A DNA stretch of 64,000 nucleotides from a virus. Positions 2,792-31,382 of the stretch are shown piece by piece (the stretch's first letter is position 1; every line of letters starts with the position of its first letter). The notes beneath the pieces were generated by a model that was not told where the DNA came from, did no database searches, and saw only the letters and a list, made by a program, of their open reading frames with translations. Where the stretch lies: positions 14,807 to 78,806 of the IMG/VR virus record IMGVR_UViG_3300044998_001035, one strand, 5' to 3'. The translations under genes were made by a program, and so were the position numbers.

Positions 2792-4087
2792 ATGTCGATG
2801 AATCCTACACCGGATCGGCACAAAATGCAAGGCCGCGCGCCGGGATTCGCGATGCTGGCGCACTGGGTCGGGGACCGGGCCGACGTCGGCGACGCCGAGG
2901 TCCGGGTGCTCCTCTCGCTGATCCGGCTCGCCCGCGGGCGCGGGGTGGTCGCCTCGACGGACGCGCAGATCGGGCTCCACGCCGGCGGCAAGGGCCGCCA
3001 CGCGGTCTCGCGCGCCCTCGCCGCGCTGGAGGCGTCGGGCCTGATACGACGCGACGCCGGCGCGGGCCGGCGCGGGCCGCGCATGATCTTCTTGGACGAC
3101 GCCATCCTCGGCAGGCCGGGCCAGTGTGACGTCTGCGAGGATCGGGATGTCGCGGATTCGCGACAGGGGGGGTGTCGCGAAAGTGCGGCGCAATGTGTCG
3201 CGGATTCGCGACAGGGGGGGTGTCGCGAAAGTGCGGCGCAATGTGTCGCGGATTCGCGACAGGGGGGGTGTCGCGAAAGTGCGGCGCAATGTGTCGCGGA
3301 TTCGCGACAGGCCCCTGTCGCGGAGATGCGGCAGGGGTGTCGCGAGGAAGCGGCGCAGAGTGTCGCGGATTCGCGACACTCTGGAGAATTCCTGAGAAGA
3401 ATTAAGACCCCCCCTACCCCCCGCGGGGGGGGCGTGTGCGCCGGGACCGCCTCGGAGGGGACGGGAGCCGCGGAGGTCCCCGGGGCCGGGACTCCTCCCG
3501 CACCTGAGGGCGAACCGGCCGGGACGCCCCCCCCGGCCCCCCCCGCCGATCCGCCGCTGTCGGCCCCGGCCCCGGCCGAGTTCAACCCGGCGGCGGTCGC
3601 GGCGGCCGAGGCGCACGTGGCGCGGCTGTTCGAGCTGTACGACGACAACGCCTCTCGGAGCGTGCGGCAGGCGTGCCGCGCCGGGGTGGACCCGGCCTGG
3701 ATCGTCGAGGCCGCCGACGCGATGGCCGAGGCCGGCAAGCTCTCGGCGGGCTGGCCGTACCTGAGGGGCATCCTGAGGCGATACCGGGCGCAGGGCGGGA
3801 CGGACCGGGCGACGGGGGACGGGCCGACGGCGACGGCGACGGCGGCGGCCCGCGGCGGCGCCTCGGCCCCGCGCGTCGCGCTGGGCGACCCGGCGGCCTA
3901 CCTGCCGGCACACGTCCTGACGCCGGAGCGCCACGCGGAACTGACCCGGCGGCGGCGCGAGGCCGAGGAGCGTGGCCGCGCCGCCTACGAGGCGAGCCTG
4001 ACGCCCGCCGAGCGGGCCGACCGGGACCGGGCGTTGCGCCGGATCGAGGCGCTGATGGCCGCCGCCAGGTCCGGGGGTGCTCGATGA
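2792..4087 (+). CDS. Phage replication initiator (N-terminal wHTH, internal iteron repeats)
   Basis: wHTH segment TDAQIG...AVSRALAALEASGLIRR; 16-aa repeats; directly upstream of DnaB. Confidence 0.7.
   Translation: MSMNPTPDRHKMQGRAPGFAMLAHWVGDRADVGDAEVRVLLSLIRLARGRGVVASTDAQIGLHAGGKGRHAVSRALAALEASGLIRRDAGAGRRGPRMIFLDDAILGRPGQCDVCEDRDVADSRQGGCRESAAQCVADSRQGGCRESAAQCVADSRQGGCRESAAQCVADSRQAPVAEMRQGCREEAAQSVADSRHSGEFLRRIKTPPTPRGGGVCAGTASEGTGAAEVPGAGTPPAPEGEPAGTPPPAPPADPPLSAPAPAEFNPAAVAAAEAHVARLFELYDDNASRSVRQACRAGVDPAWIVEAADAMAEAGKLSAGWPYLRGILRRYRAQGGTDRATGDGPTATATAAARGGASAPRVALGDPAAYLPAHVLTPERHAELTRRRREAEERGRAAYEASLTPAERADRDRALRRIEALMAAARSGGAR
3148..3378 (+). repeat. 48-bp tandem repeats containing the palindrome TGTCGCG-GATT-CGCGACA (putative origin iterons)
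   Basis: Palindrome copies start at 3148, 3196, 3244, 3292 (48-bp period) and 3361. Confidence 0.9.
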
Positions 4088-14649: not shown

Positions 14650-14678
14650 TTGACCCGCGCCGGCGGCGCTGGTAGACA
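14650..14678 (+). promoter_or_regulatory. Sigma70-like promoter of the RAMP/pentamer-array operon
   Basis: TTGACC-17 nt-TAGACA with extended TG, at the edge of an AT-rich island. Confidence 0.55.
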
Positions 14679-14767
14679 TGGGTCATGGTGATGTAAGGCG
14701 GGCATGGCGGGCATGGCGCGGCATCGATTGGCACCGGGGACGGGCGGCACGCGAGGAGACGAGCGGC

Positions 14768-15247
14768 ATGGAAATGGCGAGGCGATACCCGCTGGACTTC
14801 GACGCGATCCGGAAGGGGGACGTGCTCACGGCGGACGTCCTCGAGGAAATCTTCGGGGTCGCCCGGTCGCGCCGGGAGTACAGCAGCCGGCAGGTCGGGC
14901 TGGCGAAGCGGATCGAGCGGGAGCTGGCGCTGCGGGGCCGGCCCGCGACCGTGCGGTGCGTGGGGCCGGAGGTGCGCGTGCTGCTGGACGGGGAGGCGTC
15001 GTCGCGCAACGGCCGGCTGTTCGTCCAGTACCGCGGGAGGATGAGCCGGCGGCACGTCAAGATGGTCGAGGTGGACGTCGCGAACCTGACGCCCGAGGAG
15101 CGGGACCGGCACGGCCGGGCGCTGGTCGGCCAGGCGGCCCAGCTCTGCGGGCTCAGGGAGCGCCGCGTCGAGGCTGCGGCGGCGCACAGGCGGTCCACGC
15201 CGGGCCTCGACGCGGGCGGCGCGGGGAGCCTGCCGCCGCCCCCGTGA
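14768..15247 (+). CDS. Unknown accessory protein of the RAMP/pentamer-array operon
   Basis: GAGGAG RBS; 159 aa; the stop abuts the array. Confidence 0.7.
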   Translation: MEMARRYPLDFDAIRKGDVLTADVLEEIFGVARSRREYSSRQVGLAKRIERELALRGRPATVRCVGPEVRVLLDGEASSRNGRLFVQYRGRMSRRHVKMVEVDVANLTPEERDRHGRALVGQAAQLCGLRERRVEAAAAHRRSTPGLDAGGAGSLPPPP

Positions 15248-15678
15248 GGGCCGGCGTGACGGCACAGGGCATGGCGAGGCGGGGCATGGCTGGGCTGGGC
15301 GGGGCAGGGCAGGGCGTGGCGCGGCAGGGCCCGGCTGGGCAGGGGTCAGTGTTTATACCTGCGGCGTGCGGATATCCCCGGTTCGACCCCGGGGCGCCGC
15401 CATCCCGGTATGGCGTGGCATGGCTGGCCAAGGCGGGGCTGGGCCCGGCGGGGCGGGGCTTGGCTGGGCGAGGCAGGGGTCAGTGTTTATGCCTGCGGCG
15501 AGTGGCAAGGCCCCGGTTCGACCCCGGGGCGTCGCGATCCGGCAGGGCGTGGCGTGGCATGGCGAGGCAGGGCGTGGCTCGGCTGGGCGGGGCTCGGCTG
15601 GGCGGGGCTCGGCTGGACAGGGGTCAGTGTTTATACCTGCGGCGTGCGGATATCCCCGGTTCGACCCCGGGGCGCCGC
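15248..15678 (+). ncRNA. Putative guide-RNA array: 3 units of (GGC-NN)14-16 plus a constant tRNA-like tail
   Basis: Pentamer tracts at 15268-15342, 15407-15476 and 15541-15620; constant tails at 15343-15400, 15477-15535 and 15621-15678 (tails 1 and 3 identical). Confidence 0.8.
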
Positions 15679-15742
15679 GATGGGGTGCGGGACGTCCCTG
15701 GCCCCGGTCGGGTCCGGTTTTGCATTGGTGGAGGAGGACATC

Positions 15743-16342
15743 ATGCTCATGCACAAGCACGTCTCGTTCATGGTCCGCGGGCTTTCCCCGCTGCTGCTGC
15801 ACAACGGGCAGATCGCGAACCCGCTGAACAAGTATGCCAAGGCGCTCAAGGAGATCTCGGCCAAGCGCAAGAAGACCGACGCCGACTACGAGGCGATGGC
15901 GGAGATCGAGTGGATGGGCGGCCTCTACCTCGACGAGCACTCGCGCCCGATCCTCCCGGGCGAGGCGATCGAGTCCGCGTTCCTCAAGGCGGCCAAGCAG
16001 ATCAGGATGGGCGAGAAGGCCAAGGCCGGGATCATCTCAGACGGCATGTGGCCGATCATCCACGCGGGCCCCAAGGACCTGGAGGCGCTGTCGAAGGACC
16101 CCAGGTTCCGGGACACCCGCCGCGTCCGGGTCGGGTCGGCGTCGGTGATGCGCACCCGGCCGATCTTCGTGCCGTGGTCCCTGGAGTTCGAGATCAGCTA
16201 CCTGCCCGACCTGTTCAACGAGAAGCAGGTCGTGGACACGGTCGTCACGATGGGCCGAGTCATCGGCGTCGGGGACTACACGCCGAAGTACGGCCGGTTC
16301 GCCGTCGAGTCCTCGAAGGCCGTCGCGCACAAGGCCGCATGA
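15743..16342 (+). CDS. Stand-alone RAMP/Cas7-like RNA-binding protein (candidate effector of the array)
   Basis: N-terminal strand VRGLSPLLLHNG, PILPGEAIESAFLKAA (RAMP P.IPG..LKG-like) and C-terminal Gly-rich loop IGVGDYTPKYGRFAV; GGAGGAGG RBS. Confidence 0.75.
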   Translation: MLMHKHVSFMVRGLSPLLLHNGQIANPLNKYAKALKEISAKRKKTDADYEAMAEIEWMGGLYLDEHSRPILPGEAIESAFLKAAKQIRMGEKAKAGIISDGMWPIIHAGPKDLEALSKDPRFRDTRRVRVGSASVMRTRPIFVPWSLEFEISYLPDLFNEKQVVDTVVTMGRVIGVGDYTPKYGRFAVESSKAVAHKAA

Positions 16343-16351
16343 CCGCCCCGG

Positions 16352-16380
16352 CCCTGGCGATGCGCGGCGCATCGCCAGGG
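16352..16380 (+). terminator. 13-bp perfect hairpin closing the RAMP operon (no U-tract)
   Basis: CCCTGGCGATGCG-cgg-CGCATCGCCAGGG. Confidence 0.5.
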
Positions 16381-16484
16381 GGCGCGCGGGACGCCGCGAT
16401 GCGCCGCGCATCACTCAAGGCGCGGCGCCGGGCGCGCCGATAGACGGGCCGTGGGGCCGAAGGCGCCCCCGGAGGCCCGCCATC

Positions 16485-16716
16485 ATGTACACGGTCGCGT
16501 TCCTGAATCAGAAGGGGGGCGTCGGCAAGACGTCCTCCGCGTACCACCTCGCGGGGGAGCTGGCGCGGCGCGACCTGCGCGTGCTCGCCTGCGACCTGGA
16601 CCCGCAGGCGTCGCTCACTCAGGGGCGAGTTCCTGGTCCGGCTCGACGACCCGCACGCCGACGGCGCGGCGTTCGCGGAGGCCCTGCGGGCCGCGCTCGC
16701 GAAGGCCGCCGGCTAG
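16485..16716 (+). pseudogene. ParA N-terminal remnant
   Basis: MYTVAFLNQKGGVGKT...VLACDLDPQASLT, then similarity stops after about 47 aa. Confidence 0.75.
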
Positions 16717-16934
16717 GCCGGGCGGCACACACGGCGCCCGGATCGCGATTGACTCCGGGCTCGAGTCGTGTTGAGATCGGGATGGGCCGGCCGCGACGAG
16801 CGCCGGCCCGGCGCGGCCCGCCGGCCGTCGCCGCCGGGGTTCGTCGGCCACCCGGGGGGGGATGGCCGGCGTCGCCCCGAGCGGGGCGCCCGCGCGGGCC
16901 GTCGCCGCACCCGGGCGAGGGGGAGGAAGGCGCC

Positions 16935-17468
16935 GTGATCCTCCGCTACGACTCCGAGGCCGGCACGGTGGTCGCCGAGCCGCCACGCGTCTGGGTGCTG
17001 GTCGGCCAGGTCGCCTCCGGCAAGAGCACGTACGCCGCGCGCCGCGCCCGCCGCGGCGCGATCGCGGTCTGCCACGACGATCTGGTCCGCGCCGTCCACG
17101 CGGGCGGGGCCCACGAGGCGGGGCTGCGCGACTTCTACCGCGCGGCCGAGGAGCACCTGGCGTGGTCGGCGCTGGCGGCCGGCCGGCCCGTGGTGGTGGA
17201 CCGGACGAACCTGACGGCGGCGGAGCGGCGGCGCTGGGTGGCGCTGGCGGGGCGGGCGGGCGTCGAGGCCGTGGCGGTGGCGTTCCCGCGCGAGCGCTGG
17301 CCGGTCCACGCGCGTCGTCGTCACGAGCACGACGCGCGCGGCCTGACCCTGGCGGGCTGGGGCCGGGTCGCGCTGCGGCTGGAGCGGCAGGCGCTGGCGG
17401 AGCCGCTGGACGCGGCCGGGGAGGGGTTCGCGCGGCGCGTCGACGCCGGCCCGGCCCGGCGCCGGTGA
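16935..17468 (+). CDS. P-loop kinase (AAA_33/polynucleotide-kinase-like)
   Basis: VLVGQVASGKSTYA, HDDL, VVVDRTNL; GGAGG RBS. Confidence 0.8.
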   Translation: MILRYDSEAGTVVAEPPRVWVLVGQVASGKSTYAARRARRGAIAVCHDDLVRAVHAGGAHEAGLRDFYRAAEEHLAWSALAAGRPVVVDRTNLTAAERRRWVALAGRAGVEAVAVAFPRERWPVHARRRHEHDARGLTLAGWGRVALRLERQALAEPLDAAGEGFARRVDAGPARRR

Positions 17469-18019
17469 GGCTGCGCCGGGTGGTGACGGGCGGCCAGTCG
17501 GGCGCCGACGTCGCGGCCTGGCGCGCGGCCCGCGCGGCGGGGCTCCTCACCTCGGGCTGGATGCCCGCCGGCTACCTGACCGAGGACGGCCCGAGGCCGG
17601 GATACGCCGAGGAGTTCGGCGCGCTCTGCCTGGACGGGCCTGCGCCGTCCGGCGCGGAGCTGGGGCGGCAGTACGCCGCGCGGCGTCGGATGAACGCGGC
17701 GTGGGCGGACTGCGCGCTGCTGCTGGGGGACGCGGGCAGCCGCGGGGGCCGCGGCCTCGTCGCGGACTGCCGCGCCCTGGGCGTGCCGCTGCTGCACTGC
17801 GGGCCGGGCGGGGTCGCGCCCTCCGTCGCGGCCGACTGGGTCCTGTCCCACGACCCGCTCGTGCTGCTCGTGGCCGGGAACCGCGGCTCGGCCGGGCCCG
17901 ACGTCGAGCCCCGGGCCGGCCGGTTCGTGCTGGCCGTGCTCCGGGCGCTGGCGGACGCGGACGCGACCCTGGGTGCGATCCTGGCGTCCCCGCCGCCGCG
18001 CCTCGCGACCGACCGATAA
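17465..18019 (+). CDS. SLOG-superfamily (putative molybdenum carrier-like) protein
   Basis: VVTGGQSGADVAA, GWMPAGYLTEDG, RRRMNAAWAD, LVAGNR. Confidence 0.8.
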   Translation: MRLRRVVTGGQSGADVAAWRAARAAGLLTSGWMPAGYLTEDGPRPGYAEEFGALCLDGPAPSGAELGRQYAARRRMNAAWADCALLLGDAGSRGGRGLVADCRALGVPLLHCGPGGVAPSVAADWVLSHDPLVLLVAGNRGSAGPDVEPRAGRFVLAVLRALADADATLGAILASPPPRLATDR

Positions 18020-18414: not shown

Positions 18415-18443
18415 TTGACACGGTGTACCGCGATCCGTATAGT
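18415..18443 (+). promoter_or_regulatory. Near-consensus sigma70 promoter
   Basis: TTGACA-17 nt-TATAGT with an A-tract upstream; imperfect palindrome ACACTGT..ACGGTGT spans the -35. Confidence 0.8.
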
Positions 18444-18490: not shown

Positions 18491-18766
18491 ATGACGACCC
18501 TGACCCCGACTAAGAGCGCGAGCAGGCTGGCCGAGGCGACGAAGCACACCGTCAAGTACCTCAACGACGAGGACCTGTGGGCGATCTTCAGCCCGGCCGG
18601 CGAGGAGGTCAGCTCCGGCTGGGGGACGCGGGCCGAGGCGTGGGAGGGGGCGAGGGAGGAGCAGGACGCGCTGATGGAATCCGCGATCGAGGAGCGGCTG
18701 GCGAGGATGGGCCGGGCCGAGTACCACAAGCTCGCGGCCCTGATGGAAGCGGCGGGGCTCCTCTGA
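18491..18766 (+). CDS. Hypothetical early protein
   Basis: GGAGG RBS; first gene after the promoter. Confidence 0.65.
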   Translation: MTTLTPTKSASRLAEATKHTVKYLNDEDLWAIFSPAGEEVSSGWGTRAEAWEGAREEQDALMESAIEERLARMGRAEYHKLAALMEAAGLL

Positions 18767-18767
18767 G

Positions 18768-18820
18768 CCCCGCGAGGCCCCCGGCAGGCAGGCCCCCCGG
18801 TTCGAGCCCGGGGGCGGGGG
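18768..18820 (+). ncRNA. tRNA-like element (T-arm plus acceptor-like stem)
   Basis: CCCGG-TTCGAGC-CCGGG flanked by CCCCGC/GCGGGG, intergenic. Confidence 0.4.
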
Positions 18821-30960: not shown

Positions 30961-31020
30961 GGGGCGTCGCGGGCGCGTGGCGCGCGAGCGCCGCGGGGGT
31001 TCGACTCCCCCGGCGTCCCC
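30961..31020 (+). ncRNA. tRNA-like element lacking normal D and anticodon arms
   Basis: Acceptor-like GGGGCGTC/GGCGTCCC, hairpin GGCGC-GCGA-GCGCC, T-arm GGGGG-TTCGACT-CCCCC. Confidence 0.55.
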
Positions 31021-31272
31021 TGGGGGCGTGGGCACCCCCCCCTTCGGGCGAGAAGGTGCCAGGCAATCCGAGGGTTTCATGCACGCCTTTACGAGGATTC
31101 GCGCTCCGCCCCGATGCCCCACCCATATGGGGGGGCTCCCCTCCCTTGAAGGCGGAACTTTCCGGGCGCCGCCTCCCGCCCAGGACGTGATCGGAAGCAT
31201 TCTGGGTCGCCATCGTCGGGGATCGACGCGAAAGGAGGTGGTCATGCGACGGTCGGGTTGACGGCCCGACGT

Positions 31273-31327
31273 GCGGGGGTGGGGAAACCGGCTCGCCGGC
31301 CCGCGGTTCGACTCCGCGGCCCCCGCA
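31273..31327 (+). ncRNA. tRNA-like element lacking normal D and anticodon arms
   Basis: Acceptor GCGGGGG/CCCCCGC+A, hairpin CCGG-CTCG-CCGG, T-arm CCGCGG-TTCGACT-CCGCGG. Confidence 0.55.
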
Positions 31328-31382
31328 TGCCCCCCCTCGCGGGGGGGGCCGGACTGGACGGGCACGATCGGGAGGGGTGGCG

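Follow-up and report, generated by a model that had tools for sequence, protein, structure and literature searches.

tRNA-like minihelices separate the guides of a phage VIPR array and may be cut by host tRNA-maturation enzymes

How are the guides of a tandem array cut apart into individual RNAs? This question is raised by a short intergenic region in a phage genome that carries a VIPR system. VIPR is a relative of CRISPR that was first described in 2026 in two bioRxiv preprints (10.64898/2026.04.26.720920 and 10.64898/2026.04.26.720927). According to the text of the first (10.64898/2026.04.26.720920), Vipr is an early-branching RAMP protein of ~20 kDa that polymerizes on vrRNAs, each of which comprises 9-16 GGY-NN (YNNGG) repeats followed by an invariant 3′ tail, and the resulting complex silences DNA targets that are read via the NN dinucleotides. 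The array variants reported in that text include staggered arrays, arrays interspersed with hammerhead ribozymes, and single guides. Hammerhead arrays aside, the preprint text leaves the excision of guides from their transcripts unexplained.

The DNA analyzed here (the window) is a stretch of 64,000 nucleotides, corresponding to bases 14807-78806 of IMG/VR virus record IMGVR_UViG_3300044998_001035. The phage record is complete (78.8 kb, direct terminal repeats, ~76% G+C), and its + strand carries nearly all of its genes. In window coordinates, the array fills a gap of 495 bp (15248-15742) between ORFs of 189 aa and 199 aa. Three tandem units, 134 and 144 bp apart, occupy this gap, and each is composed of 14-15 phased GGC-NN pentamers, an 18-nt spacer, and a minihelix of 40-41 nt. 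The features of the region are as follows.

14678-15247, + strand: upstream ORF of 189 aa, GC3 0.92
15268-15342, + strand: guide tract of vrRNA 1, 15 GGC-NN pentamers in register
15343-15360, + strand: constant 18-nt spacer, copy 1, GGGTCAGTGTTTATACCT, A/T-rich for this genome
15361-15400, + strand: tRNA-like minihelix 1, with a 7-bp acceptor-like stem, a 9-nt linker containing GG, and a T-arm
15407-15476, + strand: guide tract of vrRNA 2, 14 pentamers, one of them off-consensus (GCCAA)
15477-15494, + strand: constant spacer, copy 2, with one A>G change relative to copy 1
15495-15535, + strand: tRNA-like minihelix 2, with a different 10-nt linker that keeps the GG, and the same T-arm
15541-15615, + strand: guide tract of vrRNA 3, 15 pentamers, followed by a degenerate GACAG at 15616-15620
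15621-15638, + strand: constant spacer, copy 3, identical to copy 1
15639-15678, + strand: tRNA-like minihelix 3, same sequence as minihelix 1, separating array and vipr mRNA
15730-15737, + strand: strong ribosome-binding site GGAGGAGG preceding vipr
15743-16342, + strand: vipr gene, encoding a 199-aa single-domain RAMP protein (phrog_4652, E = 1e-50)
16343-16427, + strand: nested G+C-rich inverted repeats I1 and I2, just past vipr

The initial annotation of this region had proposed a lone RAMP protein accompanied by an array of pentamer guides. That proposal was right, as established by Vipr homology and by the tracts, and the type of system was already published in 2026. The vipr product is 33.7% identical to its matching stretch of Escherichia phage SUSP1 over 93% of its length (E = 2e-29), and this stretch lies inside the first of two SUSP1 genes that are flanked by GGT-NN tracts. 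An AlphaFold2 model of the window protein (pLDDT 95.6) returns Csm3/Cmr4 Cas7-family chains as its top Foldseek matches (E = 2e-6). Homologues belonging to phrog_4652 occur in 147 phage records, including Felixounavirus relatives, LESphi2, LittleE, and Gordonia phages, and GGY-NN-type tracts also precede the vipr homologues of Pseudomonas phage LESphi2 and of MakoManhole. Tracts of at least seven units are present in 62 of the 84 Vipr loci scanned on the + strand, and similar GGC-NN tracts appear in hundreds of unrelated contigs from sludge and wastewater metagenomes. The gene strand alone carries perfect tracts in the 80 IMG/VR loci, and the same holds for relaxed tracts in 16 loci examined on both strands. 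There are no GGY-NN tracts in the rest of the window or on its minus strand, and the 15, 14, and 15 units of its three tracts fall within the published range of 9-16. Because Vipr homology and a RAMP fold are thus joined with gene-strand tracts of these sizes, the locus is a VIPR system and its pentamer tracts are vrRNA guides; a small RAMP homologue, gene-strand pentamer guides, and an invariant structured tail are all present. When read by the 1-nt-skip rule, guides 1 and 2 have no exact 11-unit match in viral or genome collections. A nearby ParA-like ORF had suggested that the pentamers might form an origin or partition site, and this idea was dropped after the link to Vipr and the strand-specific tracts of relatives had been seen.

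The constant segment that follows each tract measures 58-59 nt. It is the same in units 1 and 3, and unit 2 differs from them mainly in the linker. In all units this segment opens with the 18-nt spacer GGGTCAGTGTTTATRCCT, which takes the place of a short first hairpin (of the GGGCUG-UUUA-CAGCGG type) found in other VIPR tails. The array is probably co-transcribed with its flanking genes. A consensus scan finds no sigma-70-like promoter between the units, which is a weak negative, yet the same scan does find a near-consensus site elsewhere in this 76% GC genome, at 18415-18443 (TTGACA, 17 nt, TATAGT), upstream of the ORF at 18491-18766. Because no promoter is seen between them, the array units probably need to be cut apart. 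The sequence GTGTTTATACCT was considered as a promoter and rejected, given that it has no -35 partner and that the scan finds no site in the array. Downstream, the inverted repeats at 16343-16427 probably mark the end of the operon, and a consensus scan finds no T-run terminator at them.

The structure of the separating elements is that of the acceptor/T-arm half of a tRNA. The initial annotation had described a 7-bp acceptor-like stem stacked on a canonical T-arm, and both are present in minihelix 1, where GCGGCGT and GCGCCGC pair at seven of seven positions (the last being U-G) and CCCGG-TTCGACC-CCGGG forms a 5-bp stem closed by the loop TTCGACC. Also as described, a linker (9-10 nt in the window copies) replaces the D and anticodon arms, and copy 2 keeps the T-arm along with six of the seven stem pairs, one G-C pair having become G-U and the inner U-G an A-G mismatch. 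The T-loop TTCGACC is found in all three window copies, which form 12-13 continuous pairs. The base at the discriminator position of minihelix 1 is C15401, and CCA is not encoded. The T-arm motif, defined as a 5-bp stem with a TTCRANN loop, has six occurrences in the window, all of them intergenic and on the + strand, and this count exceeds the chance expectation from Markov shuffles (0.84 +/- 0.98).

RNAfold gives the described acceptor/T-arm fold for isolated copies 1 and 3. At 76% GC the folding energies are not significantly different from those of shuffles (z-scores of -1.0 to +1.9), and stability is therefore not used here as evidence. ARAGORN reports a 'tRNA-Pro(agg)' of 93 nt at 15587-15679, which is an artefact seeded by minihelix 3. 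A genuine tRNA gene is ruled out by the absence of a D arm and an anticodon arm and by the lack of an Rfam tRNA match. Rfam searches of the window and of 20 related loci yield no family above threshold, and a scan of eight related VIPR loci with ARAGORN returns no tRNA. The tests made here support the view that the elements are real mimics of the tRNA acceptor/T-arm domain.

The same minihelix accompanies the tracts of seven other VIPR loci, namely those of MakoManhole (three copies), LittleE (four), and Trine (three) and the IMG/VR loci L019, L076, L078, and L087. A covariance model finds 20 full-length matches in 525 kb, all of them on the gene strand, and three more in Trine. When built without the window sequences, the model still recovers all three window copies (E = 0.001-0.006 per genome). 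Covariation across homologous loci had been put forward as a check on the structure, and both stems do covary, with none of 500 shuffles reaching the observed value for the whole structure. The T stem is paired in 100% of alignment cells, with two-sided changes at four of its five pairs, whereas the acceptor helix is paired in 70% of cells; the alignment was fitted to the model, which favors the structure somewhat. If the pairing partners are slid by one to three columns, pairing falls from 83% to 36-57%.

Across 24 VIPR-linked copies from eight loci, the two stems together form a continuous stack of 11-13 bp, mostly 12 when counted along the 3′ strand, and the division between them varies (7+5, 6+6, or 5+7). 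Several homologues have an acceptor-like stem of 5-6 bp, often with a purine-purine mismatch at the junction in the 7+5 register. The length of the stack behaves like a ruler. The linker of 9-12 nt contains GG, with one column being G in at least 90% of sequences. The T-loop consensus UUCRANY fits 21 of the 24 copies, the exceptions being two in L078 and one in L076, and no copy has CCA after the stack.

The module is absent from SUSP1 and LESphi2, whose tails differ. Loci with the minihelix occupy at least two positions in a Vipr tree, although the tree comes from a quick search, is poorly resolved, and includes one faulty row (L016). The window groups there with L018, which has no module, and with L019, which has it. 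Passages of the Cluster J mycobacteriophage paper (PMC3706429) retrieved by keyword make no mention of this locus.

What purpose might such an element serve in a guide array? RNase P and RNase Z recognize the acceptor stem plus T-arm, and three bacterial enzymes, RNase P, RNase Z, and the CCA-adding enzyme, accept minihelices composed of these parts as substrates. A length of ~12 bp is that of the tRNA acceptor/T-arm stack recognized by these same three enzymes. We judge it moderately probable that host tRNA-maturation enzymes cut guides free at the tRNA-like separators of the VIPR array. The structure, conservation, and placement of the elements, and their restriction to VIPR loci in other phages, are directly observed, and from these we infer a transcript, its cleavage, the enzymes responsible, and the exact ends.

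The placement of the minihelices bears directly on this proposal. They were initially proposed to separate the array units, and they do lie between guide tracts, with homologous loci showing a similar arrangement. In Trine, the order is vipr stop codon, minihelix, tract, minihelix, tract, minihelix, and then the ribosome-binding site of the next gene. MakoManhole and L087 both have a minihelix located after an ORF and ahead of a tract, and the last tracts of the LittleE, L019, and L078 arrays close with plain hairpins. Where it could be read, the next tract begins 2-8 nt past the stack. No Cas6-like gene is seen among the ORFs scanned near the array. Because of the bracketing in Trine, the minihelices that directly follow ORFs, the plain hairpins after last tracts, the location of minihelix 3, and the lack of promoters between units, placement favors a separator over a mere tail. 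Trine also offers an observation on annotation. The annotated start of the coding sequence of its gene 40 (L098:3073-3370) makes that gene span the vrRNA array and three minihelices, and the true start seems to be at a ribosome-binding site and ATG close to locus position 3371.

It could also be that the minihelix remains on the mature vrRNA as a 3′ handle or cap, blocking 3′ exonucleases and marking the end of the Vipr filament or the start of its assembly. At most the 3′ side would then be trimmed, and RNase P would not part the minihelix from the guide. The element does sit where the published invariant tail is found, and the text of the preprints describes the SUSP1 tail as a ~40-nt pseudoknot that stays on the guide and caps the Vipr filament (10.64898/2026.04.26.720920, 10.64898/2026.04.26.720927). 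In LittleE and L078, the minihelix is only 5-7 nt from the last pentamer, and cutting by RNase P would leave the guides there with almost no tail, which counts against that cut. The other stable hairpins that end the last guides would then be equivalent caps. However, certain minihelices come after an ORF and have no preceding tract (the first copy of Trine, the upstream copy of MakoManhole, and the first of L087), and a generic cap leaves the conserved 12-bp stack, the T-loop, and the linker GG unexplained. Furthermore, RNase P would be expected to act on any free minihelix that is not protected. We therefore regard a retained cap as possible but rather unlikely.

Mimicry of tRNA in this phage is not limited to VIPR, as three further tRNA-like elements lie outside the array, at 18778-18819, 30961-31019, and 31270-31329. 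These elements would suit an explanation in which the mimics serve as decoys or sponges for a tRNA-targeting host defense system or toxin, or perhaps as handles for CCA addition, for a modification enzyme, or for EF-Tu, with their position in the array being incidental. In contrast, a covariance-model search of five other phage records (272 kb) gave 13 matches, every one of them within the VIPR locus and only a few bases from a tract border, and the minihelix is thus specific to VIPR loci in those phages. A decoy would also have no need for strict alternation with guides. For these reasons, such a role seems very improbable.

The three outlying elements each have features of their own. The one at 18778-18819 has an outer stem of 6 bp and a small inner hairpin along with the T-arm CCCGG-TTCGAGC-CCGGG. 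It begins 12 nt past the stop codon of the ORF at 18491-18766, before the next ORF (ATG at ~18873), and has no pentamer tract nearby; the model built without window sequences finds it with E = 5.5e-4 per genome. In the other two, the T-loop reads TTCGACT, the outer stems measure 9 and 11 bp, and each element has a single inner hairpin. Between them lie ~250 nt of non-coding sequence with a lower G+C content, which may be another small RNA that is freed by similar processing. Another VIPR array has a longer tRNA-like fold after its last guide tract (L083:1453-1546, also in L085), made up of an outer stem of 8 bp, a single long central arm, and the T-arm GTGGG-TTCGATC-CCCAC.

The minihelices are G+C-rich stem-loops located between genes, and as such they also bring to mind terminators or attenuators between separate units, or elements that act at the DNA level, such as an attP-like tRNA fragment or a protein-binding repeat. 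The 3′ halves of tRNAs are often found in phage attP sites, which would favor a function in DNA. However, the scan finds neither T-run terminators nor promoters between the units, and an attP fragment would be without the matching 5′ acceptor strand. Compensatory changes preserve pairing at the RNA level, G-U pairs among them, and the gene strand carries every copy, neither of which fits a role in DNA. Copies spaced 134-144 bp apart are also far too close to be integration products. We give these possibilities hardly any credence.

If host enzymes do cut at the separators, then each mimic would offer a coaxial stack of ~12 bp capped by a T-loop, which is the feature that host tRNA-maturation enzymes measure. 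The linker GG might serve as a D-loop-like elbow partner, equivalent to G18-G19, that docks on the T-loop through a putative pairing. RNase P would cut 5′ of each minihelix (before G15361, G15495, and G15639), giving the guide ahead of it a 3′ end. RNase Z, or another 3′ activity of the same kind, would cut just past the first unpaired base (~15401, 15536, and 15679) and so set the 5′ end of the following guide or of vipr mRNA. The first tract (15268) has nothing tRNA-like upstream, and therefore the 5′ end of the first guide must arise in another way. The separators would thereby do the job that Cas6 does in CRISPR arrays and that hammerhead ribozymes do in some VIPR arrays. There is perhaps an even chance that in at least two Vipr lineages, including those of the actinophages LittleE, Trine, and MakoManhole, guide biogenesis is carried out wholly by host RNase P and RNase Z.

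Comparison with other VIPR systems is informative in this regard. The Type II system of SUSP1 (Vipr, vap, and vrRNAs) resembles the window in having a small RAMP protein (34% identical), gene-strand GGY-NN guides beside vipr, and invariant tails. The two differ in the tail, which in SUSP1 is a pseudoknot with no minihelix and in the window an 18-nt spacer plus a tRNA-like minihelix. In addition, SUSP1 has a promoter-like pair (TTGACA/TATACT) before its first guide, whereas the window has no promoter-like site between units. Other VIPR types have vrRNA arrays interspersed with hammerhead ribozymes, according to the preprint text (10.64898/2026.04.26.720920, fig. S19). Because those arrays carry self-cleaving ribozymes between their guides, cutting between units is a general requirement. 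Like the window, they place a structured RNA between guides that could allow cutting without a Cas6-like protein, but hammerheads cleave themselves, whereas the window minihelix would borrow host enzymes. Rfam searches find no hammerhead in the window or in 20 related loci.

Parallels also exist in eukaryotes. The MALAT1 and MEN-beta transcripts carry tRNA-like elements (mascRNA, Rfam RF01684). In this case, the cut by RNase P leaves the upstream RNA with its 3′ end, and RNase Z frees a small tRNA-like RNA. As in the window, a tRNA-like fold without a normal anticodon arm is embedded in a longer transcript, but these elements are eukaryotic and nuclear, there is one per transcript, and the released RNA is not a guide. 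The RF01684 model gives only a weak match in the window, located at a separate element (30972-31017, 17.7 bits versus a cut-off of 42.5). In the TMERs of murine gammaherpesvirus 68 and the tRNA-snoRNA dicistrons of plants, a tRNA-like module recruits host tRNase Z. These resemble the arrangement proposed here in that a tRNA-like module, viral in the case of the herpesvirus, frees small guide RNAs, but they differ in their eukaryotic hosts, their transcription by RNA polymerase III, their full cloverleaf, and their miRNA or snoRNA products. Finally, engineered polycistronic tRNA-gRNA arrays for Cas9 alternate guides with tRNAs that are cut by RNase P and RNase Z. They are synthetic constructs with complete tRNAs, and the window array would be a natural, miniaturized phage counterpart.

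The VIPR system itself has been known since 2026, but the tRNA-like separator adds a new form of array architecture to it, judging by the preprint text. The words tRNA, RNase P, and RNase Z are absent from the main texts of the VIPR preprint and its cryo-EM companion, and a later survey that recovers VIPR arrays makes no mention of tRNA-like elements or minihelices. If the separators are real processing sites, then the question of guide excision would be answered for a whole group of systems, and there would be a third route of guide maturation beside Cas6-type proteins and self-cleaving ribozymes, as well as a natural viral forerunner of engineered tRNA-guide arrays. The phage would be making its guides with the essential host enzymes RNase P and RNase Z, a dependency that the host cannot easily drop. 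A separator of ~40 nt would also be a compact option for multiplexed VIPR or CRISPR guide arrays. Direct tests of the idea are within reach, as the same module is carried by three phages that can be cultured on laboratory strains, namely LittleE (Mycobacterium smegmatis) and Trine and MakoManhole (both Gordonia).

Several observations concern the genes around the array. The 189-aa ORF upstream (14678-15247) may be a VIPR accessory (vap) gene or may just be the preceding gene of the operon. It has no family match in Pfam or PHROG, and BLASTP finds no similarity between it and the genes that follow vipr in LittleE and MakoManhole; homology to vap was dropped for lack of similarity to these partner genes. 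No small gene directly follows vipr in the window, and a vap homologue is not recognized at the locus. Within 16485-18019, on the 3′ side of vipr, one ORF joins an N-terminus with a ParA-like Walker A motif to an AAA_33 or polynucleotide-kinase-like domain, and an overlapping ORF encodes a circularly permuted YpsA SLOG domain; where the genes in this stretch begin and end is uncertain. Farther upstream, at 3148-3311, there is a perfect 48-bp tandem repeat of 3.4 copies, each with the palindrome TGTCGCG-N-CGCGACA, which may be an operator or iteron array.

Single-protein locus searches with neighboring genes returned no close relatives, and the loci retrieved via MoxR have no array. The exact array was not found elsewhere by blastn against phage records or by an exact 19-base pattern search of IMG/VR. 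A near-identical phage from bioreactor sludge has small indels in the linker of minihelix 2, and its guide 1 is shorter by exactly 10 nt (two pentamers) at window position 15308. Because this relative lacks exactly two pentamers of the guide, guides appear to change by whole units. Samples in which the locus occurs come from hot-spring or microbial-mat, sludge, and wastewater sources.
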